DNA of 64,000 nt from Clostridiales bacterium (GTDB lineage Bacteria; Bacillota; Dehalobacteriia; UBA7702), in the NCBI GenBank assembly GCA_040766505.1, contig JAXGQJ010000009.1, forward strand, positions 13,251-77,250. Reading direction: 5' to 3'. The translations under genes and the position numbers were made by a program. A model generated the notes under the pieces. It was given only the letters and a program-made list of their open reading frames with translations. It did no database searches and was not told where the DNA came from. Below are positions 2,131-44,499 of this stretch, one piece after another; the first letter of the stretch is position 1; each line of letters starts with the position of its first letter.

Positions 2131-2145
2131 CGGTTTCCTCGCTTC

Positions 2146-3030: not shown

Positions 3031-3044
3031 TGTTTACGATACCT

Positions 3045-4548: not shown

Positions 4549-4566
4549 ACTTTCAGTGAATCAGGT

Positions 4567-5535: not shown

Positions 5536-6264
5536 TTATAGGTGCCACTCCTTTCGCAACGCACATTTCTTATCCCGAAGAGCGCAAGCCATCACCAACC
5601 GCATTCTCAAAATGGTAGCAAGCCCTCGGCGCCGGGTCGGCGTTACATTGTCGCCATGAAGGCGATGGTGGATTAAAACATCATCAAGAAAACCGATTTT
5701 ACCAAACTTCTCGGCGCAAAGCCCGAGCCAGCGATCATAAGCGTCAATGTCATCGGGAATGGGCAGGGCAATTTTGGCAAATTCGGCAGTAAAAGCCATG
5801 CAACAACCGCTATAACGGGATTTTAAAAAATTCCGCCAGAAGGACGGCCCAATACGATAGGAGGAAAAAAGTCACCGCCAACGATGGTATCCGCCCCATT
5901 GATGGTAACACCATTGTGCACGATGAGGGAAGCGCCGGTTTTTTCTAAAGCACCCACCATACGCTCAATTTTTCAGGAAGCCAAACGTCGTCCTGGTCAG
6001 AGATGAAGAAGAACTGTCCTGGCAATGCTTCAAGGCATTGTTAAAATTGTCATTGATGCCGCTTCCTTGGTCTATTACAACTCTGATGCGGCCATCCTTT
6101 ATAGCATATTTATTAATGATCTCTAATGTTCTATCGGCGGACTGATCATAAGAAACAACCAATTCATCTTCATTCCCTAGTTGGCAAATAATAGAGTCGA
6201 GTTGTTTTTCTAGATATTTCTCTCCTTGATAGACCGCCATGGCAACGGAAACTCTCACCGACAT
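5536..6264 (-). pseudogene. second family 2 glycosyltransferase, at least 2 frameshifts
   Basis: MSVRVSVAMAVYQGEKYLEKQLDSI...VVSYDQSADRT begins at 6264, inside track ORF 5965..6615. The C-terminal part HHRLHGDNVT lies in ORF 5536..5799. The middle part is readable only in a third frame. Confidence 0.65.
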
Positions 6265-6265
6265 T

Positions 6266-7411
6266 TCAATTGTCCTCCTCCAGGATTGTATCGATCCGCC
6301 GCTGAAACTCTTCCTCAAAACGGGCCAGGAAAATTGGGTTTCAAATAGTGTCCGGCTGCTTTTACGCATTGCCGGATAATCGTTTTTAAGGGCGTCCAAA
6401 ACAAGGCGGGCGGTGACACTACCGGTTTCCCGGTAAGATATACCCACCCGATGCTGATTGATAAATTCCTCCGTATCTCCGCCAACGGTGTTAATTACCG
6501 GCAGACCGCACTCAAAATAATCGACGCTTTTCATCGTCAACCCAATACAGACCGTGTCCTTGAGGATATTGATGCCGAAATGACAATGGTCAAATATTCT
6601 CTGTTTTTCCGCCATATCGTAAACCTCTCCATGATACTTTACGGCGGCGCCAGCCTTTCAATTCATCTAACAGGATATCCCTCTTCTCGCCATTGCCAAT
6701 CACATGAACCATTACCGGTTTTTCAGCAACCAGGGCCCTTACTAGACGGCAAATCCGCGGAATGTCAATAATGTTATTGATGGAGCCGAGATAAGCAAGG
6801 CTGATTTTTCCCTCATCGAGGATGGGCCGGCTGCAAAAAGATCCGACAGGCCGACAAAGATAGAGCGTAGATATCTTTTCGGCGGGAACCGTCTCGGAAA
6901 TCAATTCCCGGAAAAGATTGCATTCTGTAAAAATATAGTCCGCGCGGCCAATATTCTTTTCCCGCAGATTTTTCCAACAACGATAGGGAGGGAGCAATTC
7001 CACTTTTTTTAACGGCAGCGTTTCCGGCCAAAGATCAAGAACGTCAAAAACAATCTTTACCCCAGGGTGCCGCCGTTGATAGGATACGGTTTCCTTAACC
7101 AAAGAATTCGGGGGAACCAAAACATAGAGAAGATCTGGTTTATAGGTCGCCGCCACTTTGAGAGCTGCCCGGGAAAAACGGTAATGGGAGTAAATTCTCT
7201 GCAAGGATAGGTTTTTTCGATAGGCAATGACAGGGATAAAAACCAAATTTTCCCGGTGGTCATGGCGGCGGTCACGTTGCAGATGAAGAAAATCCGATTC
7301 GATTAAGATCACTTTAAAGCCCCTGGCTAGGAGCTGTTTTTCTACGTCAAGAACTCTCTTTTCATATGTATCGAAACAGGTTATAATTACCGCTGTTCTC
7401 ATTTCATTCAT
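6266..7411 (-). pseudogene. GT4-type (Glycos_transf_1-like) glycosyltransferase, about 2 frameshifts
   Basis: ORF 6590..7411 continues as ...DYFECGLPVINTVGGDTEEFINQHRVGISY in ORF 5965..6615. The tail EEEFQRRIDTILEEDN-stop is in a third frame, just after a TTTT run. Confidence 0.6.
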
Positions 7412-7419
7412 TTCCGCCC

Positions 7420-8436
7420 TTACTCCACACCGTCTGAGGATCCTTCCGTTGCATCGCCATTGTCATAAATAATTGAATGAATCCGCTTTGCCGCCTTATC
7501 CAAATCATATGTATAATACCAGACCCCGTCACCGGCGATGCCGCCCCTGAGGTCGGTTTCATATTGGGCGTCCGGAATCGTATATTGTTCAATGGTAAAA
7601 TTGGTCAAAGCAATGGGGGAAAGGGCAAGAATTTCGCTATAACTCAAAGATGTCTCCGCGGAATTCAGCAATTCACGGATAAAGCGGGGATAGTCCGTTT
7701 TGGGCATACCCTTGATCTTAACCAAAATTGCTGAAAGCACCTTTTGCTGCCGGGAAGCCCGGGCATTGTCGGTATCGATTTTGCGGATACGAGAATAGGA
7801 AACGGCCTGTTCCCCTGTGAGAATGACCTCACCGGAAGAAGAAATCGTGGGAGTACCCGGAAAATGCTGCACCGCGAGAGCATTGGCCATTTCTACTTCT
7901 GACTTATTCAAAGTCAATGTAACGCCGTCGACCGCATTGATAATCTTCGACAGTTGGTTAAAATTGACGGTTACGTATTCTTTGATGTCGAGCCGGTAAT
8001 TCTGGTTTAAGGTTTTAACCGCCAAGGTGGGGCCGCCATAGGCATAGGCATGGTTGAGTTTGGTTTCGCCGTGGCCATCCACCAGCACCCTACTGTCCCG
8101 CAGGATCGAGGTCATCTTAATCTGTCCCGTCGCGCTGCCGACGGACAAAACAATAATAGCGTCGGACCGGCCGCTGTCGCTGTTGTCCCGGGCGTCGACG
8201 CCAAAAAGAGCAATATTAACGATATCGCTATCCTTCTCCACCGCCTCGGAAATGCCCAAGCTGACATCGTCTTTGGGCAAGTCCGTAGTGGTCAGGCCGG
8301 AGACAACATAATAGAGGCTGCCAAACACAACACCGGTGGTAAAAAAAACAGCCACGACAAGGACGGTAAAAAAAATGAACCATCCGTTTTTCTTTTTTTT
8401 ACGGTTTCTTTTATGCCCCGTTTGATCGCGTTTCAT
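7420..8436 (-). CDS. LytR-CpsA-Psr (LCP) family cell-envelope glycopolymer ligase
   Basis: Basic N-terminus plus one TM helix, then LFGVDARDNSDSGRSDAIIVLSV and KLNHAYAYGG motifs. The start is taken at M25 (MKRDQ...). Confidence 0.85.
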   Translation of the reverse strand: MKRDQTGHKRNRKKKKNGWFIFFTVLVVAVFFTTGVVFGSLYYVVSGLTTTDLPKDDVSLGISEAVEKDSDIVNIALFGVDARDNSDSGRSDAIIVLSVGSATGQIKMTSILRDSRVLVDGHGETKLNHAYAYGGPTLAVKTLNQNYRLDIKEYVTVNFNQLSKIINAVDGVTLTLNKSEVEMANALAVQHFPGTPTISSSGEVILTGEQAVSYSRIRKIDTDNARASRQQKVLSAILVKIKGMPKTDYPRFIRELLNSAETSLSYSEILALSPIALTNFTIEQYTIPDAQYETDLRGGIAGDGVWYYTYDLDKAAKRIHSIIYDNGDATEGSSDGVE

Positions 8437-15022: not shown

Positions 15023-15096
15023 TGGAGCGGGTGATGGGAATCGAACCCACGTGTTCGGCTTGGGAAGCCGACGCTCTGCCATTGAGCTACACCCGC
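15023..15096 (-). tRNA. tRNA-Gly (anticodon CCC)
   Basis: GCGGGTG/CACCCGC acceptor stem, anticodon loop TTCCCAA, GGTTCGATTCC T-arm, encoded CCA. Confidence 0.9.
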
Positions 15097-15147
15097 ATAT
15101 GAAGCGGTACTCCGCAAAGGATTTTGCAGAGTACCTTACAGGCGGTT

Positions 15148-15224
15148 TGGTGACCCGTAGGGGATTCGAACCCCTGAATGCCAGCGTGAAAGGCTGGTGA
15201 GTTAAGCCGCTTCTCCAACGGGCC
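15148..15224 (-). tRNA. tRNA-Glu (anticodon UUC)
   Basis: GGCCCGT/ACGGGTC acceptor stem, anticodon loop CTTTCAC, GGTTCGAATCC T-arm, encoded CCA. Confidence 0.88.
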
Positions 15225-15228
15225 AAAA

Positions 15229-15304
15229 TGGTGAGCCATCGGCGACTCGAACGCCGGACACCCTGATTAAAAGTCAGGTGCTCTACCTACTGAGCTAATG
15301 GCTC
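15229..15304 (-). tRNA. tRNA-Lys (anticodon UUU)
   Basis: GAGCCAT/ATGGCTC acceptor stem, anticodon loop CTTTTAA, GTTCGAGTC T-arm, encoded CCA. It lies 4 nt upstream of tRNA-Glu. Confidence 0.9.
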
Positions 15305-15386: not shown

Positions 15387-16675
15387 TTATACGGAGAAGC
15401 CACGGACAATGGTTTGGCTTCTCTCGGGGCCCACGGCGATGATCGACGCCTTGACCCCGGTCAGCGCCTCCAGCCTTTCGATATAGCGGCGGGCATTCTC
15501 CGGCAGATCCTCATAGCGGCGGGCGTCCCCGTCGGCTGTTTCCAGCCGGGGTGGCTTTCATAGATCGGTTTGCAGTGGTTTAGGATCTGAAGCCCCGCCG
15601 GGAATTCCTTTAAAACCTGGCCCCGGTATTCATAGCCGGTACAAATTTTGATCTCGGCAAAATCATCGAGTACATCCAGCTTCGTGATGGCCAAATCCGT
15701 CAGGCCATTGATGCGGACGCTATAGCGCAGCGCCACCAGATCCAGCCAACCGCAGCGGCGGGGCCGCCCGGTGGTCACGCCGAACTCGCCGCCGGTTTGG
15801 CGGAGCCGCTCGCCGGTTTCATCCTCCAATTCCGTGGGGAAGGGGCCGCTGCCCACACGGGTGGCATAGGCTTTGGAGACGCCGATCACCTGGCGTACCT
15901 CCCGGGGGCCAAAGCCCGCGCCGACCAAAGCGCCGCCGGAAACCGGGTTCGAGGAAGTGACAAACGGATAGGTGCCATGGTCCACGTCGAGATGGGTGCC
16001 TTGGGCGCCTTCCAGCAACACCTTTTTACCGGCTTTCAACTGCTCGTCCAATAGCAGCGCCGTATCGGCGATATAGGGTTTCGCTTCCGCCGCCAGCGCC
16101 ATAAATTCCCGGACGATCGGTTCCGGCTGAAAGGGTTCGGCGCCATAGATCTTTTCCAATAGCGGGTTTTTCTGGTCGAGGGCCAGCCCCAGCTTGCGGC
16201 GAAATTCCCCTTCATCGAGCAGATCCGCCAGCCGTATGCCGATGCGGTTGATCTTATCGACATAGGCGGGGCCGATGCCGCGCTTCGTCGTACCGATCTT
16301 GCCCTCGGCCTTGGCCTCTTCTTCCAGCGCGTCGAGAACTTTATGGTAGGGCATAATCAGGTGGGCCCGTTCGGAGATATAAAAACGGTCAAAGGAAAGA
16401 CCGCGTTCCTTTAAAGCGCGGATTTCAGCGAGCAGCACCGCCAAATCGACGACGACGCTGTTACCGATCAGGCAGAGGCAATCTTTATAAAGAATTCCCG
16501 AAGGTACGAGATGGAGTTTATAAACTGCGTCGCCGGAGATCACCGTATGCCCCGCATTGTTGCCGCCCTGATAGCGTACGACGACTTCCGCAGTGTTCGC
16601 CAAAAAATCTGTTATCTTGCCTTTACCCTCGTCGCCCCATTGGGCGCCTACCAAAATCGTTGCTGCCATTGTCAA
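15387..16675 (-). pseudogene. purA: adenylosuccinate synthase, one frameshift near 15555
   Basis: GAQWGDEGKGK P-loop; ORF 15461..16675. The true tail ...[43 protein letters not shown]-stop is in another frame and ends at 15387. Confidence 0.88.
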
Positions 16676-19169: not shown

Positions 19170-20015
19170 TTATTTATATTCTTCAAACAGGGCGGCAAAG
19201 GCTTCGGGGGAATCGGTGATGTGGTAAACATGTTGGTCTTCCGGGAACCGGCCCGTCAACACATCGTCGATATAGGCCTTAAAGGCGTCGGTTTCGATCC
19301 GGGCCAGATCGGCATATTTCTTTACAAATTTCGGCGTGAAGGCTTGGAACATACCCAAAAGGTCGCCGCAGATCATCAGTTGGCCGTCGGCGGGGCCGGC
19401 GCCGATGCTGTACACCGGAATCGAAAGTTTTTCCTGGATAAATTTCGTCAGTTCCGGCGGCACCGCCTCCAAAAGCAGGGAATAGGCGCCGGCCTGTTCG
19501 ACGGCGAGGGCGTCCTCGATGACGAGGCGGGCGTTCTTCACATCCCGGCCCTGGGCCTTAAAGCCGCCCAATTGGCCGGAGCTTTGGGGCGTTAAACCCA
19601 AATGGCCGATGACGGGGATGCCGGCGTCGGTGATGGCGCGGATCCTGGGGGCCACGCGGATGCCGCCTTCCAGCTTGATGCAGTCGCAAGCGGCTTCCTT
19701 GATGAAACGGCCGGCATTTTCCACCGCGCTTTCATTGCTCACCTGGTAAGACATGAAGGGCATATCCCCGACGATCCAGGTATGGGCGCCGCGGCGCACC
19801 GCCTGGCAATGGGAGATGCAATCCGCCATCGTGACGGGATTGGTGCCTTCATAGCCCAAAACGACCATACCGAGGGAATCGCCGACGAGAATCATATCGA
19901 TACCGGCGGTTTCCGCAAAGGTGGCGGTGGGGAAGTCATAGGCGGTGACCCAGGTCACCTGTTCCTTGTTCTTCTTCATTTCATAGAAATCAAGAATGGT
20001 CTTTTTCTTTTTCAT
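19170..20015 (-). CDS. panB: 3-methyl-2-oxobutanoate hydroxymethyltransferase
   Basis: 281 aa with VTWVTAYDFPTA...LVGDSLGMVVLGY motifs. Intact. Confidence 0.88.
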   Translation of the reverse strand: MKKKKTILDFYEMKKNKEQVTWVTAYDFPTATFAETAGIDMILVGDSLGMVVLGYEGTNPVTMADCISHCQAVRRGAHTWIVGDMPFMSYQVSNESAVENAGRFIKEAACDCIKLEGGIRVAPRIRAITDAGIPVIGHLGLTPQSSGQLGGFKAQGRDVKNARLVIEDALAVEQAGAYSLLLEAVPPELTKFIQEKLSIPVYSIGAGPADGQLMICGDLLGMFQAFTPKFVKKYADLARIETDAFKAYIDDVLTGRFPEDQHVYHITDSPEAFAALFEEYK

Positions 20016-20037: not shown

Positions 20038-21673
20038 TTAACGGCTTGCTCTTTTGCTCTTCCACTTCTCATATTTCCGTTCCAGGAAGGTGCCGCGTAC
20101 CGCGATTTCCTCGGGATCGTCCGGGGCTTCGGCCACAGCATCCTCGTAGACATACATGCCCCTTTCATCCTTGGGCCGCTTCGCCATATACCAGACGAAA
20201 CCGCCAAGCATGATAAGGCCCACAAACAGAATCGGGAGGCCGGCGAAGGTTTTGACCATCTTGATGCCGTCGATGCCGCCGGACAAGGTGAAAACCAGGG
20301 AGGAAAGGCCCATGGTAATGCCCCAGAAAATCTTCAGCGCGATCGGGGCTTCCTTGATATTGTTGTTGTTTTTCAGGGTCATGGTGGAAATGGTGGACGT
20401 CATCGAGTCGGCCAGCGTGACAAAGGAAAAAGCGATGGTGATGATCATAACCGGCTTAACGATGGCGGCCAAAGGCAGGAGATCAAAGGCGGAGAAGGTC
20501 AGCGCCTCGGCGCCCTGCTGGAGATAAACGCTGAAAATGTCGGATGCCTTCGAAAAGCTGGGCATGGAGAACAATGCCGCCGAAAACCGAGAACCAGAAG
20601 AAGGCGAACACCGCCGGCAACAGCCAGTTGACGATTACGAATTGGCGGATGGTGCGGCCATAACCGAGGCGCACGCAGAAAAGGCCGACGATGGGGCCAA
20701 AGGAAAGCCAATCGACCCACCAGTACATATCCCACCATTGGGGCCACAGTTCGCTGTCGGGGAACGGCGCCGTGAAGGTCATGCCTTCGAGGAAATTGGC
20801 GAAATAGGAGCCGGTGGATTGGGTGAACAGATTAAAGATATAGGCCGTCGGCCCGAAAAGGAGCACAAAAACCATCAGGACAATGAAAATCCAGGTATTC
20901 TTGTCGCTCAGCCAGGCGATGCCGCGCTTCAGCCCCGAGGTGCTGGAGATCGTATAGCCCACAACGATCGAGAGGGCGATCAAAGAATAGACGATGGCGG
21001 AAGGGGAAATACCAAAAACCATATTGAGTCCGCTGCCCAACTGCAGCAAGCCGTAACCGAGGGAACCCGCGACGCCGCCAGTGATGGCAAAGACGGTTAA
21101 GGTATCGATGATGCCGGCAAATTTCCTTTGGTCGCCCGGTCGCCCAGCATCGGCACGAAACCGGAGCTGACATTGTAGGCTTCCGCATATTGTAATAGGC
21201 ATAGGCGATGATGACGCCGAAGGTAACATAAATCGCATACGGCGTAAAAGACCAATGTAAAAACGATGTCCGCATGGCCCAGATCACCGCTTCATTGCTT
21301 TCCGGCGTCAGGCCCAGGCCGGGCGCCGGTTGCATTGTGAAGAGCAGAGGCTTCCACGGAACCCCAGAACACGATGCCGGTGCCGATGCCGGCGCAGAGG
21401 GCGATGGAAAACCAGCGCCAGGTGCTCATCCGCGGCGTGGCATTGGGGCCGCCCAATTTAATTTTCCAACGGGGTGGAAGATCAGCACGACCATAAAGGC
21501 AACCATAATCACCATGCCGATGCTGACCATCCAGCCAAAGGTTTGCATCAGCGTTTCAAACCAACCGTTTAAAACGGAAATAAATCCTTCCGGGTTCAAA
21601 AGCCGACGATGATCAGGGTCAGGAAAATCGCACAAGGTATCAATAAAACGCCCCAGCGAAGATTTTTAATCAT
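20038..21673 (-). pseudogene. BCCT family (betaine/carnitine/choline-type) transporter, at least 3 frameshifts
   Basis: Pieces lie in ORFs 21426..21635, 20832..21335, 20483..21238 and 20038..20574. BCCT signature WPQWWDMYWWVDWLSFGPIVGLFCVRLGYGRTIRQF. The ATG at 21673 gives MIKNLRWGVLLIP. Confidence 0.8.
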
Positions 21674-21699
21674 AGAAGGTTCATCCTTGTATTATAGAG

Positions 21700-21925
21700 T
21701 AGTGGTTATTATAGCCCCTCTCCAAGGGCTGTGGTACACTGTAGAGGATGCTGTGGATTGGTTGTTTCCTCCTACCACGAAGATGGTTCTTGAAAGGCTC
21801 CAACCACAGCCCTTTGCAGGTTTGTTAATCAGTTAGATACCGCCAGACGGTTTATGTAGAGCAAGGTTACAAGAGCAAAGAGTTCTGTGGATACAGCATC
21901 AAATATGACTGCCGGAGGTATCATC
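21700..21925 (+). ncRNA. candidate IS110 bridge-RNA region (5-prime non-coding end of the element)
   Basis: About 220 nt of non-coding sequence upstream of the transposase, with an 11-bp long-range pairing AAGGGCTGTGG (21724-21734) / CCACAGCCCTT (21804-21814). Confidence 0.3.
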
Positions 21926-23101
21926 ATGGTTTGTATCGGTATTGACGTTGCCAAGGACAAGCATGACTGCTTCATCCTCAACTCAGAGGGCGAAGTCCTC
22001 GCCGATGTATTCACCATCCCCAACAACATGGCGGGATTTCGCTGCCTGTTGGAAAGAATCCAAGCCTGCACCACAGCCCAAGACAAAATCAAAGTAGGAC
22101 TTGATATGAACCGACACTACAGCTACAACATCCTCGGGTTTCTTCTTGACAATGGTCTTCCCACCTATGTCCTGAACCCCCTGCACACCAACCTGTATCG
22201 GAAAAGCCTCAGCCTTAGAAAGACGAAGACCGACCGCGTTGACGCACGAACGATTGCGGCTATGCTCATGTCTGATATGGGCCTCAAGCCCTACACAGAC
22301 ACAGCATACCATAACGAGGAGCTAAAGTCACTAACAAGATACCGTTTTGACAAAGTGAAGGAGCGTGGAAAGCTCAAGCAATCTATTGCCCGTCTGGTCT
22401 GCATCCTGTTCCCTGAACTGGAAAAGCTGGTTTCGTCCCTCCATATGGCCTCCGTTTATGCGTTGCTGAGCGAGTTCCCCGGTGCGAAACAAATTGCGGA
22501 CGCACATCTGACACGGTTAAAGGCGCTCCTGTTGGAGTCCTCCAAAGGACACTACAAGCGGGATACGGCCATAGAAATCCGCGAAGCAGCCAAAGTCTCC
22601 ATTGGCTCCGTAATGCCGGCAAAGTCGCTGGAGCTGCGGCACACCATCCATCTCATTCGGGAATTGGACGCCGAGATTGAAGAAATTGAAGCCGCAATTC
22701 AGGCCATTATGGATGGGCTACGTTCTCCCATTACAACCATCCCCGGTATTGGCATCCGGATGGGTGCTATGATTCTGGCCGAGGTGGGAGACTTCTCTCG
22801 GTTTGATTCTCCCGATAAGGTGCTGGCATATGCCGGAATGTCGCCGTCTACTTACCAATCCGGCCAGCTTACAAATTGTTACGCCCATATGGAGAAGCGT
22901 GGCTCCAGATATCTGCGCTTTGCCCTTTACAATGCTGCAAAGTATGTCTGTCACTGGGATCCGGCTTTTGCCGCTTACCTCGATAAGAAACGGGCCGAAG
23001 GCAAGCATTACAACGTTGCCATCTCTCACGCTACCAAGAAGCTGGTGCGACTCATTTTTGCGCTGGAGAAATCCGGGGAGCCTTACCGCCCCGCAGTGTG
23101 A
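21926..23101 (+). CDS. IS110 family transposase
   Basis: MVCIGIDVAKDKHDCFIL (DEDD N-domain) and C-terminal YAGMSPSTYQSG. GGAGG RBS. 391 aa from M14 of the track ORF. Confidence 0.9.
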   Translation: MVCIGIDVAKDKHDCFILNSEGEVLADVFTIPNNMAGFRCLLERIQACTTAQDKIKVGLDMNRHYSYNILGFLLDNGLPTYVLNPLHTNLYRKSLSLRKTKTDRVDARTIAAMLMSDMGLKPYTDTAYHNEELKSLTRYRFDKVKERGKLKQSIARLVCILFPELEKLVSSLHMASVYALLSEFPGAKQIADAHLTRLKALLLESSKGHYKRDTAIEIREAAKVSIGSVMPAKSLELRHTIHLIRELDAEIEEIEAAIQAIMDGLRSPITTIPGIGIRMGAMILAEVGDFSRFDSPDKVLAYAGMSPSTYQSGQLTNCYAHMEKRGSRYLRFALYNAAKYVCHWDPAFAAYLDKKRAEGKHYNVAISHATKKLVRLIFALEKSGEPYRPAV

Positions 23102-23269
23102 CCGTCACTTATTTAGCTCGCAGGGTGTTCTATCGAGTGCCTGCTTTGCTATGCCCTTTTTGAACCACCTGCCTTTACACGGCTTTTCTCATTTTCAGGC
23201 TTGACTTTTAATAGTTAGTCTTTCATTCTGTCAGAAGTTGCGGCGCCGCTACCCCGGTTCGGGCGGCGG

Positions 23270-24058
23270 TTATACGTGGCCATAATATTCCCGATGGTTG
23301 ACAATGCTATAGGCATAGTCCAACAGGGTGCCCCAACTGAAAACCGGCAGATCCAATTGGCGCTGGATCGCCCTGGCGAAGGGCTGCATACCGGTGCATT
23401 CCAGCATGATGGCGCCGATTTCGGGGTTCTTTTCCACAAATTGTTCGGCGCAGGCGACCATTTGGGCTTCGGTCTTTTCATAATCGGCGGTGGGACATGC
23501 GGGACGCTTCAACGGATTCCAAAGATTGTCAAATTCTGTCACGCCGTATTCGTCCTGAGAACCGGCGACCAAAATCCGTGGCGACGGCTCCACGCCGACG
23601 GCCCTTAAATGCGCCTCGCTTAAAAATTGCTTTTGGGCGCAGATGATGCCGACGCTCTTTTGGGGGCCGATGATCTGTTGGATAAAAGGAATCTGCAATA
23701 AGCTCGACATGAAAACGGGCACGCCGGCGACGGCCGCCACATCCTTTTGGAAAAAGGCAAAATATCCGCATTCCGCCGCGATGGCGCGACAGCCGAGGCG
23801 TTCCAGCTTTTTGGCGGCGGACAGCACCGCCTCGCGGCATTGGGCCGGGTTATTATCGTATACCAGGGTTTGATTGGTTACGCCTTCCGCGATTTCATAC
23901 TGGATCGGATAAGGGAAGGCACTGGCATTGCGGACATCGCCGGGGAAACCGGGATAGGCATCGTTCAATAGGATGATGCCGATGCCCATGCCATAACAGA
24001 CGTGGTTCTTTCTGGCTTTGATCCGGCCGATGCCCATATCGCGATTTTGATATAGCAT
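23270..24058 (-). CDS. Asp/Glu/hydantoin racemase superfamily protein
   Basis: 262 aa with two Cys-containing motifs, AIAAECGYF and IMLECTGM, typical of two-thiol racemases. Intact. Confidence 0.65.
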   Translation of the reverse strand: MLYQNRDMGIGRIKARKNHVCYGMGIGIILLNDAYPGFPGDVRNASAFPYPIQYEIAEGVTNQTLVYDNNPAQCREAVLSAAKKLERLGCRAIAAECGYFAFFQKDVAAVAGVPVFMSSLLQIPFIQQIIGPQKSVGIICAQKQFLSEAHLRAVGVEPSPRILVAGSQDEYGVTEFDNLWNPLKRPACPTADYEKTEAQMVACAEQFVEKNPEIGAIMLECTGMQPFARAIQRQLDLPVFSWGTLLDYAYSIVNHREYYGHV

Positions 24059-24088
24059 CTCATCTCTCCTTTCTTTTTATAGCTCCCT

Positions 24089-25510
24089 TTATAGCGCAAA
24101 TTTTCCTTCCCATTTGGCAAGGATCGCTTCCCGCTCCTTATCCAGCGGCGTTTCTTCGCCGCCGATCACCTCTAAGGCCCGTTCCCGCATTTTCAGCGCG
24201 ACGTCGCTCTCATCGAGGTTCTTCATGCGGCGGGAGAAAAGCGAAGGATACCAGACGGAACGGAAGTTTTCCAAGGTATGGGGGTGGGTCATATATTCGC
24301 CGCCATGGCCCACTTCCCGGATGGTATCGAGCGCAAAATCCTCCTCTTCCACCCCGACCCCGGCGCTGTAATGGCGATAGGATTCGATCAGTTCATTGGC
24401 CAAAACGACGAGTTCCGGGCTGACGCTATTGCAATGGTCCATCACACCGACATCGTGCACGATATTGGCCTTGCTGAGCAAGGTGGAAAAAATTTGATAG
24501 GATATTTCAGAAACTGCCTGCACATCGACGGTTTTCGCGTCGGTGCAGCCGGCGGTGCCATAGAAGGGCAAGCCATAAGAGGCGACGAGATCGGCATGGG
24601 CGGCGATGCCGAGATGAAATTCCGGCGCGGCATAGCTGCCCACCGTCGTTTTCATATCGAAAACCGAGGGCATCGCGCCATAGATGAAGGGAGCCCCTTC
24701 CGACGCCAACTGGGTGAGAACAAGCCCCGCCAGGGCCTCCGCATTGCATTGGGCATAGGTGGCAGCCTTCGACATCGGCGCGGTGCCGCCCATCATGCAA
24801 TAGGGCATATAGACGAAGGGGATCCGATTTTCGGCGCTGATCAGCACCTTTTCCGTGCTTTCCAAGGGGTGGGTCAGGGGCGGAATCGGTTCGCAATAGT
24901 TAAAGATAAACGGTTTGTCCTGCAATTTGTCGAGCCCGCCGGCGAAATCGGCGGCGATGGCGATGCAATCCCGGAGGGATTCGATATCATTGCTGGAAAA
25001 ATTGATGGTCTTTTTCAGATGGCGCAGCGTTTCGATGAAGGTGCGCTGGGTCTGCACCCGGGGGTCCACATCCGCCGTCATGCCGACGGAGAGAACAAAG
25101 GAAATGTGCTCCATCGCATTGGCGATTTTGCACATCGACGCGATGTCGCTGTGATAGAAATTCCGCACGACGCCCTTCTCCGGCTCCACATATTGCAATT
25201 GGTCCGAGTGGGTGCCGAAATAGACCGGGTTCTTTTCATCGATGTGCATGATCACATCGCCGTCGCGGTTGTACAGATCGAGAACCTTGGGCGCTTTTTC
25301 GATGGCCCAGGCCGTCAACTTTTCCGGAATGAAAACGAGGCCCTCATTGTCCACGTCGGCGCCGGCTTTTTTAAAGAGGTTGAGGGCCCGTTCACCGGTG
25401 ACCCGCATACCGGTTTTCGTCATGATCTCGATGCTTTTGTCATGGATTTTATTGATCTGATCGCGGTTTAAAACATGAAATTCGATATTTCTTACGATCT
25501 CTTTGCTCAT
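24089..25510 (-). CDS. MttB-superfamily (non-pyrrolysine) methyltransferase, probable quaternary-amine:corrinoid methyltransferase
   Basis: 473 aa, uninterrupted (no in-frame amber codon). Length and overall sequence are characteristic of trimethylamine-methyltransferase-family proteins. Adjacent to a BCCT transporter. Confidence 0.75.
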   Translation of the reverse strand: MSKEIVRNIEFHVLNRDQINKIHDKSIEIMTKTGMRVTGERALNLFKKAGADVDNEGLVFIPEKLTAWAIEKAPKVLDLYNRDGDVIMHIDEKNPVYFGTHSDQLQYVEPEKGVVRNFYHSDIASMCKIANAMEHISFVLSVGMTADVDPRVQTQRTFIETLRHLKKTINFSSNDIESLRDCIAIAADFAGGLDKLQDKPFIFNYCEPIPPLTHPLESTEKVLISAENRIPFVYMPYCMMGGTAPMSKAATYAQCNAEALAGLVLTQLASEGAPFIYGAMPSVFDMKTTVGSYAAPEFHLGIAAHADLVASYGLPFYGTAGCTDAKTVDVQAVSEISYQIFSTLLSKANIVHDVGVMDHCNSVSPELVVLANELIESYRHYSAGVGVEEEDFALDTIREVGHGGEYMTHPHTLENFRSVWYPSLFSRRMKNLDESDVALKMRERALEVIGGEETPLDKEREAILAKWEGKFAL

Positions 25511-25579
25511 CTTTCCTCCTCGGCGGGAAGGGAGCGCCGCGGGCCTCCCTTGCTGCCAACCTGAAGCGGGAACACCGCT

Positions 25580-26791
25580 TTATTTTGAAATGCCTTCCCG
25601 CAGATATGCGTTCATCTCTTCCTTCGTCATGTCGCCAAGGCCGAGATAATCCAGGGTATAGCCTTCCGCATAGAAATCCCTTCCAAATCGCGGATACCAG
25701 ATTGATCATCGAATCGATCACCGGGGTTTTGACACCGAACTTTTTCCCCAATTCATGGTAGAGGTGGCAGCCGACGGGGATGTCCTCGGTGATATAGCGG
25801 TTTTCCATCGTGAAGGGGCCGGTGCCGTATTGGATATAGTCTTGCTGGTCAAAGGGATTTTGTACTCTTTGCCCATATATTCCTGGCCGAGAACATTCTC
25901 TCTAGAGAAAAGTCTTCCTTATCGTAGGGCTGGATGCCGACGCCGACGGCCTGCGCCAATGCACATTCTTCCTGATAGAAGGTGTACTGCACCTGAGAAA
26001 TGGAGGGGCAATAGGCATGGGAATAGATGCTGTAATCGTATTTGTTTTCGCCGTAGATCACGCCCCAGTTTTCCATCGTGCTGACCCCCAGGATCGTGCC
26101 GGGGCAGTGGAGAACCGGGTTCACATTGCTGAAGCCGATGTCGAGAACGGTATCGCCGGCAACGGCGCCGTCGCCCTTCGTCACCGCGTCCATGGAAGGC
26201 AGACAATTGGCGCTCTCAATGAAGTCCGCCGTATCGCAGGCCGGCATCGCCGCGCCTCGCAGGGTGATGGCCCGGTAGTAAACGCGGATCTTAGGCAGGA
26301 CGACGCCGCCTTTGACCTCTACGCGGCTGCCATAGGTGGAGGAAGACCAACCGCCGATGATAACCTTTTTGTCACAGCCGGCTTCTTTCATCATCTTTCT
26401 TAAAAGCAGGCTGCCGTAATTGTCGGGGAACAGGTGGACAACTTGGCCGTCTTCCAGCGCGGGGATCAGCTTTTCGAAGAAGGGTTTGTAGCCCAAAGTG
26501 GTGGTGCCGATCACGATTAGCCGGCGCCTTTAACGGCTTGGGCCACGTCGGTGGTGACCAATTCCATCTGGGCTTGGCCATGCCGTTCAAAACCGTAGAG
26601 ATTTAATTGGTCGCCAAAAATTTGATGCCGGTTTCCTCAACGCCAAACAGGGTTTTGTCCGAGAAAGGGGGCAGATCGCAGATGCGCACTTTGGCGCCGC
26701 CTAAGGCGCAGTCGGCGGCGATCGCTTTTGATACGGCGCCGGCCCCCAAAACCGCGATGGGTTTCTCCCGTAGATAATTAAACTTGCTCAT
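25580..26791 (-). pseudogene. NAD(P)-dependent opine (octopine/nopaline) dehydrogenase family protein, at least 3 frameshifts
   Basis: N-terminal Rossmann KPIAVLGAGAVSKA (ORF 26603..26791), a middle part (25849..26514), and the octopine-DH motif RYITEDIPVGCHLYHELGKKFGVKTPVIDSMINL (25449..25808). Confidence 0.7.
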
Positions 26792-26849
26792 TTGATTGAA
26801 CCTCCTACATTTTACCCGATAGAGTTTTATTCGCTTTGCTTAGTATAAA

Positions 26850-26865
26850 AGCAAAAACCATACCA
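26850..26865 (-). promoter_or_regulatory. sigma-54 (-24/-12) promoter of the opine-DH / mttB / racemase operon
   Basis: On the minus strand: TGGTATGGTTTTTGCT (TGG..A.G-N4-TTGCT, correct GG/GC spacing), about 60 nt upstream of the ATG at 26791. Confidence 0.65.
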
Positions 26866-26996
26866 AAAATTCCAAACACGAAAAAATAAAATAATTGAAC
26901 CATAAAACAGGAAAGCACGGAAAATCCGACAAAAAACAGGCCTTTTCATTTTTTCCGATCCATGATAGAATGAAAACAATTTCAAGTGAAAAGGAA

Positions 26997-27045
26997 TTTT
27001 GCGCCACATATCTTTGCGCGCAAAAATACTTAGTTATTTTGCGCC
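26997..27045. promoter_or_regulatory. candidate enhancer (UAS) repeats for the sigma-54 activator
   Basis: TTTTGCGCC (26997-27005), the palindrome TTGCGCGCAA with GCGCAAAA (27014-27025), and a second TTTTGCGCC (27037-27045). They lie 130-190 nt upstream of the -24/-12 element. Confidence 0.45.
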
Positions 27046-27089
27046 AAAGACAAAATTTCCATTCCAACCTTAGAGGGGGTGTTCGTTCC

Positions 27090-28549
27090 GTGGCAAAAGC
27101 AAATGCCGCAACCAGCGCCGAAGCTGCGATGTCTCTTGAAAATATGCTGGATATATTGGATCTTTGCATCCAAGCCATCGATGCCCGGGGCAATATCACC
27201 TACTATTCCCGGGGCGTGGAAATCATGGAGGGTTTAAAGAAAGAGGATGTTTTGGGCCGCAATCTGACGGAAATCTATAAAGAGGAAAAAGAGGACCGCA
27301 TCAGCGCCCGGAACAGCATCATGATGCAGGTATTGGAGAGAAAGCGCCCCGCTCTCGGCCAATATATGTTCTACTATATCGGGGGGCGGCGCTTCAATGT
27401 GATCACCGATGTCTATCCGGTTTTTGACGGCGAGGAGCTGGCCGGGGCCATCGCGCTGTTCCGGGATGTGGCGAAGGCGAAATCCATCGCCCACGACATC
27501 ATTGAAATGGAGCGTAAACTGCTTCTACAGGGGAACAAACCCACCGACCATTCCCTTTACCGCCTCGACGATATCATTTGGGGCAGCGAAAAAATGGCGG
27601 AGCTGATCGAGATGGCGAAAAAAATGGCGGCCACCAATATGCCGGTGATGGTCGAGGGCAAAACCGGCACCGGCAAGGAATTGTTCGCCCAGGGCATTCA
27701 CAGCCAAAGCCCCTTTGCCGGCGGCCCCTTTGTCGCCATCAATTGCGCCGCCATTCCGGAAAACCTGATGGAAAGCATCCTGTTTGGCACCAGCAAAGGC
27801 GCCTTTACCGGCGCGATGGACAAGCCGGGGCTTTTGGAGGAGGCGGGAAACGGCACCCTCTTCCTGGACGAAATCAATTCTATGCCGATCCATCTGCAAA
27901 GCAAATTGCTGCGGGTGCTGCAAACCCGAAGGTTTTTGCGCCCGGCGGCAATAAGGAAATTTTCTTTCATGCCCGGATCGTCAGCGCCATCAACATCGAC
28001 CCCCGGGAGGCGGTGCAAAACAACCAGCTTAGGGCCGACATCTATTATCGTTTGGGCACCCTGGCGCTGTCCCTGCCGCCTTTAAAGGACAGGCCCGCCT
28101 GCATCCCGCCTCTGGCGGAGCATTTCATCCAAAAGGCCGACCTGACCCTGGGGAAACACATCCATGGCATCACCGATGATGCGATGGAGGTTTTCCGGGA
28201 TCACGATTGGCCCGGCAATGTACGGGAAATGGAGCATGTGATCGCCTATGCCATCGCCCTCTCCGATTTCGAGCAGACGGAGATCAGCTTCGACCTGCTG
28301 CCCCCCTATCTCAAGCGAAAATACCGGCTGCCCATCATCACCACGAAAGTTTCCGCCGAGGAGGAAAACGCCACCCTCCAAGAATACCTGCACGGTTGCG
28401 AAAAACGGCTGATTATGGAAAAGGCGCGGCATCACAATGGCAATATGACCAAAATCGCCGCCGCCCTCGGCATCTCCCGCCAGAACCTGCAATACAGGGT
28501 GCGGCGGTTGCAAATCCAACCGACCAAGATGAAGGAAGAAGAAATTTGA
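27090..28549 (+). pseudogene. sigma-54-dependent transcriptional activator (PAS + AAA+ + Fis-type HTH), one frameshift near 27935
   Basis: PAS-like N-terminus, Walker A GKTGTGKELFA, the sigma-54 contact loop GAFTGA, and C-terminal HNGNMTKIAAALGISRQNLQYRV. Split between ORFs 26895..28085 and 27578..28549. GTG start after a GAGGGGG RBS. Confidence 0.85.
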
Positions 28550-28684
28550 TTCCCGGGCAAAATACGGCCACGGCATTGCGGCCTAAACCGGAAAAATGCG
28601 TTTGACCGCAACCGCGCAAAGGTACGCGGGGAAACGGACAAACGCATTTTTCGAACGCCGCCGACCATGGGCGAAGCTTGGGGA

Positions 28685-30103
28685 TTATTCCCGGACGGCC
28701 TCGACCGCCCCTCTTCCATCCCCAGCGCCGTCATTTGCCGGATCATCTCTTTGTCTACCGCGTCGGGCAGGCCCGGCGGTATATGAGACGACAGCATTTG
28801 CCCAAGGCGGTCTTCAATTAAGCCCCGGTATTTCTCCCTTCGTCGCCGTCGAAAGCGCCGGAAAGATTGATGGCCGGCAAGAAGCTCCCGCCCCGCAAAT
28901 GCTGAAACGTGTGCATCGCGCTCATAAATTCACCGCCGATGCCCGCCTCCGAAATGGCGTCATAGGCCAGGGTGTCGTCGTTCACCGCCACATCGCCGAG
29001 GAAGCGGCGCACCATGGCGATGATTTCCGTATCGATGATGAACTTTTCATAGGAAAAGCTCTGGTAACCGTCGACGATGCCGCTGCTCTGGAAGATCATA
29101 TTCGTCCCCGCCTGGGCGGTGGCGAGCAGGGTGAGCATACTTTCATAACCGGCCTGGGCCGTCATGGTTTTCGCGTCGGTCAGGCTGCCGCCGCCGCGAC
29201 AGGGCAGTTTGTGGTATTTCGCCAGTTTGGCGCCGTAAGCATAGCAGAGGGCCCCTCCGGCGAACCGATGGTGATGGCGCCGGTTTTCATATTGGCATTG
29301 GTGGTTTGGCTGCCATAGACCACCGGCGTTCCCGGTTGGATCATCTGGGCCACGGCGATGCCGGCCAAAATCTCCGCATTGGTCAGGGCCAGGGTGCCGG
29401 CGAGGGTGATCGGGGAGGTTGTCCCCGCCATCCCGGCGGCGGCGATGACCACGGCCTGGCGGTTCTCGGCGAAAACATGCAAGGTTTCCAACATTTTACC
29501 GTCAAATTGCAGCGGCGTATTGGAATTGATGATCGTGACCAGCCGGGGCTTTTCCTTCAGTTTTTCCCTGCCGCCATAGGCGGTGGCGGCGATCTCCATC
29601 AGCCGCTCCATCTCTTCCCGGCTGCCGGTGGCGGTCACCTGCACTTTGTCGGAATGATAGCGGGACGCATAGAAGAGCAGCGACTGGTAAAAGCCGGGGC
29701 CGTCCTTGGGCTGTATCAGCAAGCCGCCATTGATATGATAGGCGTCGCTGCCATTGTAGAGCTTTGCGATTTTGACATAATCTTCCATCCGGCCGGGCCG
29801 ACGGCGGCCCTGCCAGTCGGCGACGGTAGACGGGCCGGAGCAGGGGCAAAACCAGACATTGTCGCCGCCGACCTCCATTTGCCAGCGGTCGCTCCCGCCT
29901 GCCAATGTAAAGGTTTGCGGCGCTTGGCCCAGCCAATGCAGCAGTTCCTCTTCCCGGAAAAAGACCCGGTTGCCATCGCAGCGCAGCCCATGGCCTTTCA
30001 CGATCGCCAATACCGCGGGACAATGGAGCGCAATGCCGGTTTCCGCCAGGATTTTATAGGAAGCCTCCTCGATTTGCCGTATATTTTCCGTTTCCCTATC
30101 CAT
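28685..30103 (-). pseudogene. second MttB-superfamily methyltransferase paralogue, at least 3 frameshifts
   Basis: ORF 29180..30103 plus ...ALCYAYGAKLAKYHKLPCRGGGSLTDAKTMTAQAGYES... (frame change at a GGGG/CCC run near 29250), then ORF 28818..29165 and a C-terminal piece. The breaks are frame changes rather than an amber codon. Confidence 0.65.
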
Positions 30104-30140
30104 GGTTTTCCTCCCTTTGTTTTCACTTGGTTGTTTTTAT

Positions 30141-30156
30141 AGCAAATTCGGTGCCA
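30141..30156 (-). promoter_or_regulatory. consensus sigma-54 promoter of the second mttB paralogue
   Basis: On the minus strand: TGGCACCGAATTTGCT (TGGCAC-N5-TTGCT), about 40 nt upstream of the ATG at 30103. Confidence 0.75.
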
Positions 30157-43176: not shown

Positions 43177-44499
43177 TTAAAACTTCGTCAGATACTGGTC
43201 TACCTCCGCGGGGTGACCGCCGAGCGATAGCTGGCCCACTCTTTCCGCTTCGCCTCGGTAAAACAGTTAAAGACATGGGTACCCAAAGCCCGGAAATGAC
43301 GACATTGTTCTTCAATTCCTTGATGGTGTCCCGGAGGCTTTCCGGCAAAGCTCGATTCCTTGCCCAGCCTTTCGGCGGGCTGAGGCATAGAGATTGTAAT
43401 TGCAGGCCGGCGGCGGCGCAATCCGGTTTTTGATGCCGTCGAGGCCGGCGGTGAGCATCACCGCTTCCGCCAGATAGGGTTGCAGCAGGATCGGGCTGCG
43501 CATCTCCACCCGGGTGGAATTGCCCCTTCTGGTGGGAATCCGCACCAAGGGGCTGCGGTTCTTCCCGGACCAGGCGATATAAACCGGCGCTTCATAACCG
43601 GAGATCAGCCGCTTATAGGAATTGACGGTGGGGTTGGTGATCGCCGTGATCGCTTTCGCGTGTTTCAGAAGGCCGCCGATATAAAAATAGGCGATCTCCG
43701 ACAGGCCGTCTTTGCCTTCGGGGTCATAGAAAACGTTTTCCCCATTCCGGCTGAGGCTTTGGTTCATATGCATACCGGAACCGGCGATGCCGGCAATGGG
43801 CTTAGGCATAAAGGAGGCGTGGAGCCCGTGCTGCTGGGCCACCATCCGCACAATCAGTTTGAAGGTTTGAATTTTATCGGCGGCCTGGAGGGCCCCGTCA
43901 TACTTGAAGTCGATCTCGTGCTGGCCCGGCGCGCATTCGTGGTGGGAGGCCTCGATCTCATAGCCCATCTCTTCCAAAGCGATGATCATATCGCGGCGGG
44001 CATTTTCCCCAGATCCACCGGGGAAAGGTCAAAATACGCGGCATTGTCGTGGGTGAGCAGCGTGGGCGCGCCACCGGCGTCGGTATGAAACAAAAAGAAT
44101 TCCGCTTCGGGGCCGACATGCATTTCCAGCCCCATTTCCGCCGCCGCGGCGATGGCCCGCTTCAACACATAGCGGGGGTCCCCTTCAAAGGGCCGGTCAT
44201 TGTGATCGTATACATCGCAGATTAGCCGCGCGATGCCCTCTTTCTGGTGTTCCCAGGGGAAATCTGCCATGTATTGTAATCCGGCTTTAGATACATATCC
44301 GATCTTCGATGCGCACAAAACCTTCCACCGAGGAACCGTCGAACATCATCTCGCCGTTGAGAGCTTTTCCACCAGCTGACGGGTAATGCCACATTTTTAA
44401 AATCCCGGAAGGCAATACATCGCTAAACTGCAAGCGGATAAAACGCACCTGGTGTTCCCGGGCGCTTGCCAAAATGTCTTCCCTGCCATATTGGCCCAT
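43177..44499 (-). pseudogene. glnA: type I glutamine synthetase, at least 3 frameshifts
   Basis: Pieces lie in ORFs 44287..44499, 43986..44318 and 43312..43989 ([41 protein letters not shown]). The tail ...EVDQYLTKF-stop ends at 43177. Confidence 0.85.

Follow-up and report, generated by a model that had tools for sequence, protein, structure and literature searches.

Organization of the locus

The 64,000-nucleotide stretch of DNA analyzed here (the window) comes from a Clostridiales bacterium (assembly GCA_040766505.1, contig JAXGQJ010000009.1, positions 13,251 to 77,250) and carries a gene cluster that, by its sequence, belongs to the MttB-superfamily systems for corrinoid-dependent demethylation. 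The cluster encodes two MttB-superfamily methyltransferases (MttB-1 and MttB-2), an opine-dehydrogenase-like enzyme (ODH), an Asp/Glu-racemase-like enzyme, a BCCT-family transporter, the ketopantoate hydroxymethyltransferase PanB and a transcriptional activator (Table 1). The genes for the transporter, the racemase, MttB-1 and ODH lie on the minus strand and an IS110 transposase gene on the plus strand; the gene for the PAS-AAA+ activator is divergent from the ODH operon, and that for MttB-2 is convergent with the activator. Housekeeping genes flank the cluster, with panB, spoVT, pfk and purA on one side and prsA and mfd on the other. Open reading frame (ORF) listing and Pfam/NCBIfam searches reproduced the gene content, order and strands that a preliminary description had given for positions 20038-30156, and all the genes that it listed were found; it had taken four frameshifted genes as ordinary members of the layout and had left out panB, which is part of the conserved unit. 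Gene neighborhoods in other genomes indicate that the combination of ODH, MttB and racemase is such a unit and not a chance neighborhood.

Table 1. Genes and regulatory elements of the locus, in window coordinates.
Feature	Position	Strand	Remarks
panB (ketopantoate hydroxymethyltransferase)	19170-20015	minus	intact, 281 aa; last operon gene, starts 22 nt after BCCT
BCCT-family transporter gene	20038-21673	minus	three frames, at least 4 uncompensated indels
IS110-family insertion sequence	21700-23260 (ends approximate)	plus	fills the racemase-BCCT spacer
IS110 transposase ORF	21887-23101	plus	404 aa, intact
Asp/Glu/hydantoin-racemase-superfamily enzyme	23270-24058	minus	intact, 262 aa; Cys97, Cys221
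MttB-1, clade-A non-pyrrolysine MttB superfamily	24089-25510	minus	intact, 473 aa; PF06253 E = 5e-71
Opine-dehydrogenase-like gene	~25580-26791 (3' end approximate)	minus	5 uncompensated indels
Sigma-54-type -24/-12 promoter TGGTATGGTTTTTGCT	26850-26865	minus	~58 nt upstream of ODH start codon
PAS-AAA+ (GAFTGA)-HTH_8 sigma-54 enhancer-binding protein gene	~26970-28549	plus	one frameshift near 27940
MttB-2, clade B, MtgB-like non-pyrrolysine MttB	~28684-30103 (3' end approximate)	minus	3 uncompensated indels
Sigma-54-type -24/-12 promoter TGGCACCGAATTTGCT	30141-30156	minus	38 nt upstream of MttB-2

Conservation of the cluster across genomes

Two scans were made from opposite ends of the association. 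One, seeded with ODH and restricted to one genome per species, returned 70 loci, 33 of which carry a close ODH (68-84% identity); the reciprocal scan was seeded with the MttB-1 subfamily (clade A), covered metagenome contigs and returned 44 loci. Among the close-ODH loci of at least 15 kb (n = 23), 22 contain the racemase, 21 contain panB and 19 the activator, and a clade-A MttB and another MttB are each present in 18. The five that lack clade A are four Synergistales variants and one truncated Desulfosporosinus contig. Seen from the MttB side, ODH accompanies clade A in 33 of the 44 loci and in 9/9 of those of at least 15 kb, the rest being mostly short or truncated contigs, and panB lies inside the cluster in all nine metagenome loci of that length. 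The same association is recovered in both directions, and in most of the ~70 loci ODH directly adjoins the clade-A MttB. The preliminary description had suggested a comparison of gene neighborhoods across genomes, and by these counts the neighborhoods are strongly co-conserved.

The core of ODH, clade-A MttB and racemase, usually joined by panB and a second MttB, occurs at about 70 loci in Acetobacterium, Sporomusa, Desulfosporosinus, Ca. Formimonas, Desulfobacterium, Synergistales and gut Lachnospiraceae/Oscillospiraceae. Named carriers include Acetobacterium wieringae, A. malicum, A. carbinolicum, A. paludosum, Sporomusa malonica, Desulfosporosinus species and Ca. Formimonas warabiya DCMF, together with one Desulfobacterium metagenome-assembled genome (MAG) and several gut MAGs; in Sporomusa carbonis and Desulfosporosinus orientis, the MttB-1 homologues adjoin ODH, the racemase and a second MttB. 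Across classes, identity to the proteins of L001, the syntenic locus in GCA_053527415.1, is 76-82% for ODH, 71-84% for the racemase and 59-68% for MttB-1. The order panB-ODH-MttB is common, panB and ODH are often adjacent, and in Desulfosporosinus a sigma-54 promoter is followed directly by panB. The enzymatic core is constant and its accessories differ by lineage: the transporter may be of the BCCT, OpuAC-type ABC, LIV-type ABC or MFS kind, and the regulator is mostly a sigma-54 enhancer-binding protein and at times an IclR protein. One Lachnospiraceae MAG (L122/L123; GCA_948935325.1; ERZ28569608; 1500-15000) has the arrangement BCCT-MttB-MttB-ODH-panB / IclR-racemase, and a protein sequence identical to its racemase is found in 757 blocks of the assembly index. 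In this Lachnospiraceae cluster the IclR-type regulator takes the place of the sigma-54 activator, and a phage-type integrase gene lies beside it. The Sporomusa loci (L005/L006/L008; e.g. L005:14250-16304) include a gene for a dCache_1-HAMP methyl-accepting chemotaxis protein within the cluster, which suggests chemotaxis towards the substrate of the cluster. Two unannotated 307-aa neighbors taken from different clusters bear no relation to each other.

A second subfamily of ODH homologues, about 55% identical (L035-L063, e.g. L049:8500-11200 and L046:1-4500), was found in gut Oscillospiraceae, Lachnospiraceae, Peptoniphilus and Acidaminobacter. Its genes have a LysR regulator in divergent orientation and an MmgE/PrpD-family protein as neighbors, often together with a Na+/glutamate-type symporter; Fer2_4, Pyr_redox_2 and DAO genes are nearby in a few loci. 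These homologues were considered as members of the cluster and set aside as a different system, since the LysR regulator, the MmgE/PrpD protein and the glutamate symporter stand where MttB would be expected; from its context, the subfamily looks like part of another secondary-amine pathway.

The two MttB proteins

Both MttB proteins were compared directly with MtgB of Desulfitobacterium hafniense and the Methanosarcina MttB, with the intact L001 orthologue standing in for MttB-2, and pocket columns were read from a MAFFT alignment of 65 sequences that included 34 of clade A. MttB-1 matches PF06253 with 239.7 bits over profile positions 23-467 of 500, and MttB-2 matches it with 231 and 87 bits on the fragments 29180-30103 and 28818-29165. 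Both stay under the TIGR02369 equivalog cutoff for pyrrolysine-containing MttB (Pyl-MttB; ~295 bits versus 525). MttB-1 is about 25-28% identical to both MtgB and MttB (up to about 29% to MtgB) and nearly equidistant from them (E = 6.5e-48 and E = 5e-42, respectively). Its AlphaFold2 model (pLDDT 90) has the predicted TIM-barrel fold of MttB/MtgB, and the best Foldseek match is MttB (7xcl; TM score 0.90, E = 1e-33), followed by MtgB (2qne; TM score 0.87). MttB-2 is 39% identical to D. hafniense MtgB, with E = 5.5e-101 to 9yce.

In MtgB, the substrate is contacted by Tyr97 and Phe356 through cation-pi interactions and by Arg312 and His348 at the carboxylate, and Arg312 is common to all non-pyrrolysine members of known function, namely MtgB, MtpB, MtcB, MtyB and MthB (PMC13080624). 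At the positions of Tyr97, Phe356, Arg312 and His348, the MttB-2 clade has Ser, Tyr, Arg and Gln, and the MttB-1 clade has His, Cys, Tyr/Phe and His. Two of the four MtgB substrate-binding residues thus differ in MttB-2 (Tyr97 to Ser and His348 to Gln), and this, with the 39% identity, led us to reject its identification as MtgB itself. In the clusters, the second MttB invariably retains Arg312, and its residue at the pyrrolysine position is Leu. The active site of MttB contains Gly110-Thr111, pyrrolysine 334 and Tyr364 (PMC9842639). MttB-1 has a pocket of His101, Tyr317, Cys322 (at the pyrrolysine position), His352, His359 and Cys360, and the pattern H-Y/F-C-H-H-C at these six columns is shared by all 34 clade-A sequences: His replaces Tyr97, Tyr or Phe replaces Arg312, Cys occupies the pyrrolysine site, His stands at the position of His348/Tyr364, and a further His precedes the Cys at Phe356. 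Clade A retains the MttB-like FGT and LPxYxxxG-C-xDAK motifs. MttB-1 contains no in-frame UAG; its uninterrupted 473-aa frame has an ordinary Cys codon at the pyrrolysine position. A pyrrolysine trimethylamine methyltransferase was considered for both paralogues and ruled out by Cys322 in MttB-1 and by the Leu at the position of pyrrolysine 334 in MttB-2.

Given that Arg312 is kept in every characterized non-pyrrolysine member, its absence from MttB-1 and from 34/34 clade-A sequences means that clade A differs from each of them at a functionally defined residue. The preliminary description had raised the question of whether the two paralogues fall within a characterized substrate class; neither clusters tightly with MtgB or MttB. 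Our working hypothesis is that the Arg-containing MttB acts on a quaternary betaine and that clade A acts on a non-quaternary N-methyl amine, which would need another form of activation. The His/Cys set of clade A (His101, Cys322, His352, His359 and Cys360) may bind a metal such as Zn.

ODH, racemase, PanB and transporter

Octopine_DH (PF02317) matches were obtained on two fragments of the ODH gene in the window. The 405-aa orthologues align with residues 8-392 of N-(1-D-carboxyethyl)-L-norvaline dehydrogenase (CENDH, 1bg6; E = 1.7e-22), and they have the architecture of an N-terminal GxGxxG Rossmann domain with a GAGAVG-type motif followed by the Octopine_DH helical domain. Four orthologues all have His229 (in NPVLH) and Arg333 and Asp338 (in NRYITED), which line up with CENDH His202, Arg292 and Asp297; we take the latter three to be the catalytic residues of that enzyme. 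No NCBIfam model matched the ODH protein.

The racemase exceeds the PF01177 cutoff (36.5 bits versus 31) and that of NF005679, a model named 'hypothetical protein' (277 bits versus 231). Its two thiols, Cys97 and Cys221, are invariant (35 and 27 sequences). A sequence search of the PDB returned no relatives; the best folds for its AlphaFold2 model (pLDDT 79.5) are hydantoin, aspartate and allantoin racemases (TM score 0.6-0.72 at ~15% identity).

By its sequence, PanB is canonical: it matches PF02548 with E = 8e-102 and TIGR00222 with 297.6 bits (cutoff 207.55), and among PDB entries it matches 1oy0 (E = 2.4e-59) and 1m3u (E = 8.6e-58). It is 72-77% identical to the Desulfosporosinus/Formimonas type and 53-56% identical to the PanB proteins of the Sporomusa and Acetobacterium clusters, where ODH is 78-83% identical. 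This discordance with the other cluster genes suggests that panB was recruited repeatedly, and thus that the pathway needs a PanB-type step.

Pfam matches to the BCCT transporter in the fragments 20038-20574, 20483-21238 and 20832-21335 cover profile positions 110-479 of ~485, and tblastn recovered the N-terminal part in other frames. The L001 orthologue falls below the betaine_BCCT equivalog cutoff (364 bits versus 650).

Regulation and corrinoid partners

The earlier assignment of the locus to sigma-54 control is supported by its sequence: the activator combines Sigma54_activat, GAFTGA and HTH_8 signatures, and -24/-12 promoters are present. Its domains (Sigma54_activat, PAS, AAA_lid_14 and HTH_8) are spread over two ORFs in different frames. 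The element upstream of MttB-2, TGGCACCGAATTTGCT, is the sole zero-mismatch match to TGGCAC-N5-TTGCW in the window and has a homologue in L001 at 5247-5262; the element before ODH, TGGTATGGTTTTTGCT, reads TGGTAT-N5-TTGCT. An exact TGGYAY-N5-TTGCW element is found in 29 of 37 activator-bearing loci, at no more than 350 nt and mostly 54-85 nt upstream of a gene, and the conserved elements precede ODH, panB, the racemase, the BCCT or other transporter, or a corrinoid-protein gene. The best NCBIfam match of the L001 activator orthologue is the proline-reductase regulator PrdR (NF041552), an identification that we rejected because the score of 362 bits lies far below the cutoff of 795. A paper on Clostridiales sigma-54 regulons makes no mention of a regulon of this type.

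The preliminary description had also reported neither a corrinoid protein nor an MT2 methyltransferase in the window, and a tblastn search with 82 corrinoid-protein, MT2, URO-D and CobW queries likewise found none in the 64 kb; none was found within 10 kb in L001 and L002 either. Loci of Sporomusa, Acetobacterium, Desulfosporosinus and Synergistales have both within the cluster: the Sporomusa carbonis cluster has a corrinoid protein and a Pterin_bind MT2, Acetobacterium clusters have a corrinoid protein, MT2s of the Pterin_bind and URO-D types and CobW, and one Synergistales locus has a RACo-type activase.

State of the window copy

L001 occupies the same chromosomal place and served as the intact reference for frameshift calls, which were made by tblastn and pairwise DNA alignment. 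All its genes are intact, in the order mfd-prsA-MttB2 (473 aa)-activator (534 aa)-ODH (405 aa)-MttB1 (473 aa)-racemase (261 aa)-BCCT (545 aa)-panB. Measured against it, MttB-1, the racemase, panB, mfd, prsA, pfk and spoVT are intact in the window (panB at 92.6% identity), and MttB-2, the activator, ODH and BCCT together contain at least 13 uncompensated indels. Those in ODH lie near 26620, 26522, 25909, 25850 and 25680, and those in MttB-2 near 29256, 28836 and 28706. By tblastn, ODH is recovered as four frame-switched segments with 77-84% identity to the L001 orthologue, MttB-2 in three frames with 78-81% identity, and BCCT in frames -1/-3/-1/-2. The racemase-BCCT spacer is 72 bp in L001 and ~1.6 kb in the window, where it is filled by the IS110 element. 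The transposase of this element has DEDD_Tnp_IS110 and Transposase_20 domains and matches the NCBIfam model transpos_IS110 (NF033542) with 207 bits (cutoff 140); the element interrupts no coding region and is present in a single copy in the window.

These breaks allow two readings. The locus may be a dead remnant, with genuine frameshifts and a genuine IS110 insertion; this lineage would then have lost the pathway, and panB, the racemase and MttB-1 would survive by chance or for other uses. The density of lesions speaks for such a loss, with at least 13 indels in the 5.9 kb of the four cluster genes against 1 in the 10.7 kb of nine neighbors (mfd, prsA, panB, pfk, spoVT, a tautomerase gene, purA, the racemase and MttB-1), as does the IS110 element, which cuts the promoter off from BCCT and panB. 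A second syntenic genome, 'Clostridiales bacterium AnMBR.bin322' (L071; JAXGQI010000012.1, 6400-15200), also points this way: it has the same order, mfd-prsA-MttB2-activator-ODH-MttB1-racemase-BCCT-panB, and is frameshifted in partly different genes (MttB-1, MttB-2 and BCCT), with the activator, racemase and panB intact. Against real inactivation stand the kind of lesion and its reach beyond the cluster. All lesions in the cluster genes are 1-2-nt indels, deletions predominate, several lie in short homopolymers, and no in-frame nonsense codon was found in the four broken genes; the aligned segments are still 78-84% identical, as protein, to their intact orthologues. Lesions of this type at that level of identity fit consensus errors of a metagenome or long-read assembly. 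Two housekeeping genes of the window are broken in the same way. The frame of purA (15390-16669, minus strand) shifts near codon 377, and the glutamine-synthetase catalytic domain of glnA (43315-44345, minus strand) is split over two frames that overlap at 43989-44028 and cover profile positions 1-70 and 71-289. Because the breaks extend beyond the MttB locus in this manner, we consider the frameshifts to be probably indel errors of the assembly, with real inactivation, and with it the loss of the pathway, the less probable but still serious possibility.

Between purA and its neighboring gene there is a tandem array of three tRNA genes (window 15026-15304, minus strand), a trio that is also present in L001. 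An Rfam search at the gathering threshold of the window and six related loci gave tRNAs only and no riboswitch. Window positions 2000-8000 are low in GC (43-46% versus 55-60% elsewhere); this region may be a polysaccharide-synthesis island, as the start of one ORF resembles, by eye, a sugar-nucleotide enzyme.

A proposed pathway and its alternatives

The preliminary description had proposed a catabolic route for an N-methylated amino-acid derivative, and both the co-conservation of the genes and the divergence of the MttB proteins speak for it. We give about even weight to a more specific form of this proposal, in which the window holds one representative, an interrupted one, of a conserved module, under sigma-54 control in most lineages, for the catabolism of a chiral N-methylated alpha-amino- or imino-acid betaine. 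We infer every step of it from gene content, conservation and residue patterns. The betaine would be taken up by the BCCT transporter (or by OpuA-type, LIV-type or MFS systems in other lineages). The Arg-containing, MtgB-like MttB-2 would demethylate the quaternary nitrogen once, with a corrinoid protein as the methyl acceptor, and clade-A MttB-1 would take a further methyl group off the resulting non-quaternary amine. From the corrinoid protein the methyl groups would pass through MT2 to tetrahydrofolate (THF), with both genes located, if at all, elsewhere in the genome that the window comes from. The two-thiol racemase would then invert C-alpha to the D form, since enzymes of the opine-dehydrogenase type act on a D-configured center. 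The NAD-dependent ODH would oxidize the bond between C-alpha and nitrogen in the remaining secondary amine, so that either an amine plus a 2-oxo acid or a cyclic imine would result. PanB would tie the 2-oxo acid to the methylene-THF pool, most likely by removing a C1 unit from a 4-hydroxy-2-oxo acid. The PAS-AAA+ activator is envisaged to turn on both promoters when the substrate is present.

Two types of substrate seem to us about equally plausible, neither with more than tentative standing. One is an acyclic amino-acid betaine that would leave, as its carbon skeleton, a substrate for PanB: in the homoserine type, 4-hydroxy-2-oxobutanoate would be converted to pyruvate and CH2-THF by PanB, and in the valine type, alpha-ketoisovalerate would be the substrate of PanB. 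An acyclic betaine would account for PanB as well as for transporters of the LIV type, and methylamine would be released by ODH. The other is proline or hydroxyproline betaine, which has two methyl groups and agrees with hints from Pro_racemase, AcnX and PrdR; N-methylproline is reportedly a dead-end product of MtpB. A Pro_racemase-family gene occurs in one lineage with an MttB context and in one Synergistales locus, and the large and swivel subunits of AcnX adjoin ODH in Synergistales and Geosporobacter loci. The type of AcnX in the Synergistales loci could not be assigned, as it is equidistant from cis-3-hydroxyproline dehydratase and mevalonate-5-phosphate dehydratase, so the link to hydroxyproline is a hint only. 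The remainder of the probability goes to something else.

Several observations weigh against the proposed module. Some full-length clusters (L002 and L089) contain clade A without a second MttB, which raises the possibility that clade A itself acts on the imported compound. A set of Synergistales loci (L026, L029, L030, L031, L033, L067 and L124) combines a close ODH (72-76% identical) and a PRK07475-type racemase with split AcnX (large and swivel subunits), a TRAP transporter, a regulator of the RpiR or cupin type and sometimes panB and Pro_racemase-family genes. In L124, two MttBs accompany AcnX, ODH, the close and a distant racemase, a corrinoid protein and RACo; the other loci of the set have no MttB, so that ODH and racemase have a function independent of methyl groups. 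The window, besides lacking a corrinoid protein and MT2, yielded no RpoN box in its 64 kb, and four cluster genes of the window copy are frameshifted. Proline betaine leaves PanB unexplained. For enzymes of the ODH family, reductive condensation is thermodynamically favored, so the oxidative direction would need removal of the product. The order of the steps from the first demethylation to the oxidation by ODH is itself inferred.

A rival account holds that two unrelated functions lie side by side: the MttBs and BCCT would carry out ordinary demethylation of the glycine-betaine type, and PanB, ODH and the racemase would form a pantoate module, with ODH as a ketopantoate reductase or pantoate dehydrogenase and the racemase acting on pantoate or its lactone. 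The canonical PanB sequence, the frequent adjacency of panB and ODH, and two Synergistales loci in which ODH, racemase and TRAP genes are followed by panB without any MttB are what such a module would lead one to expect; neither of the frameshifted loci (window and L071) has a break in panB or the racemase, and Octopine_DH belongs to the same Pfam clan as the C-terminal domains of ketopantoate reductases. It has more difficulty with the position of ODH directly beside the clade-A MttB in most loci, found from both scan directions, and with the promoters of one sigma-54 type that precede ODH, panB, racemase and transporter genes alike. The nearest relative of ODH, moreover, is a true secondary-amine dehydrogenase, CENDH (E = 2e-22), to which it aligns at the presumed catalytic positions, and neither MttB has the substrate-binding set of MtgB. 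We therefore regard it as unlikely. Still more remote, and in our estimate very improbable, is a biosynthetic cluster in which PanB and ODH would join a 2-oxo acid to an amine, giving an N-substituted amino acid that the MttBs, run in reverse, would convert by methylation to a compatible solute. The preference of opine dehydrogenases for reductive condensation, the common panB-ODH-MttB order and an EamA-type exporter in some clusters would suit it. Against it, uptake systems are encoded in the clusters (BCCT, OpuAC, LIV-type and TRAP binding proteins), along with a chemoreceptor gene in those of Sporomusa; methylotrophic acetogens harbor the clusters together with methyl-corrinoid:THF methyltransferases, and we know of no MttB-family enzyme that is a physiological N-methylase.

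Comparison with known systems

The locus resembles the non-pyrrolysine MttB systems, MtgB/MtgC/MtgA of Desulfitobacterium hafniense and MtpB, MtcB, MtyB and MthB of Eubacterium limosum, in that both of its MttBs are PF06253 proteins and a BCCT transporter is present; MttB-1 has the predicted TIM barrel (TM score 0.87-0.90), MttB-2 has the carboxylate-binding Arg312, and a corrinoid protein is encoded at related loci, along with a reductive activator and a THF methyltransferase. It departs from them in that neither paralogue is close to the members compared (MtgB and MttB) and that MttB-1 has an invariant His/Cys pocket in place of Arg312. By its sequence, the locus is set apart by an MttB subfamily with no Arg at this site and with Cys at the pyrrolysine position, by the partnership with ODH, racemase and PanB, and by sigma-54 control. 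To our knowledge, no described MttB system joins the methyltransferases to an opine-type dehydrogenase, a racemase and PanB or depends on sigma-54, and all remove one methyl group only.

The Pyl-MttB of Methanosarcina barkeri (7XCL) is the best structural match of MttB-1. Both have the FGT motif (Gly110-Thr111), both lack the Arg of the betaine enzymes, and MttB-1 keeps the LPxYxxxG-X-xDAK loop that is the site of pyrrolysine 334. They differ at that site, where MttB-1 has a Cys codon, and at Tyr364, which is His in MttB-1; the genomic context, too, suggests an amino-acid-like substrate rather than free trimethylamine.

A functional parallel is offered by the aerobic catabolism of proline and hydroxyproline betaine in Paracoccus and Rhodobacter (HpbD, the Rieske enzyme HpbBC and the flavin enzyme HpbA), in which proline betaine is degraded with a racemase and two different demethylases, one per methyl group (PMC3950512). 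The proposed pathway would follow the same logic, a racemase or epimerase combined with separate demethylases for the quaternary and the tertiary amine. The aerobic pathway is induced by its substrate (PMC3950512), as is proposed for the cluster, and both have transporter genes adjacent. None of the enzymes is homologous: the aerobic racemase is of the enolase superfamily and that of the cluster of the Asp/Glu type, an oxygenase and a flavoprotein remove the methyl groups in place of corrinoid-dependent MttBs, and PanB is absent from the aerobic pathway. In the hydroxyproline-betaine branch, a D-specific dehydrogenase is said to act next. CENDH from Arthrobacter (1BG6), the closest solved relative of ODH, shares the architecture of a Rossmann and an Octopine_DH domain, but overall similarity is low, the two differ by ~45 residues in size, and the context of ODH is demethylation and not the use of opines.

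Implications for the MttB superfamily

Full-text literature searches returned no paper that brings together MttB, an opine dehydrogenase, a racemase and PanB, and searches for octopine or nopaline dehydrogenase with corrinoid, or for tertiary-amine or dimethylglycine methyltransferases, returned nothing relevant; none of the papers searched links the three downstream enzymes to corrinoid methyl transfer. In a 2023 survey of the gut, most non-pyrrolysine MttB homologues had no assigned substrate and were labeled 'MtxB' (PMC10653893). The cluster described here marks a large and sharply bounded subfamily of MttB proteins with a distinct active-site make-up, and its carriers include culturable acetogens, sulfate reducers and a Lachnospiraceae lineage, so that the question of its function is directly testable.

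If the proposed module is correct, it would add a new methylotrophic substrate or pathway, reveal a pyrrolysine-independent way for anaerobes to take off a second methyl group, and matter for what becomes of dietary betaines that are otherwise a source of trimethylamine. Clade A could be an enzyme for the pyrrolysine-independent demethylation of a non-quaternary amine which, together with the Arg-type MttB and with ODH, racemase and PanB, would accomplish the complete anaerobic mineralization of a betaine, an extension that we put forward as speculative and rather doubtful. Were it true, anaerobes would take more than one methyl group off such a betaine, where the known systems stop after one, and the branch of ODH, racemase and PanB would turn the carbon skeleton into a central 2-oxo acid and a C1 unit.

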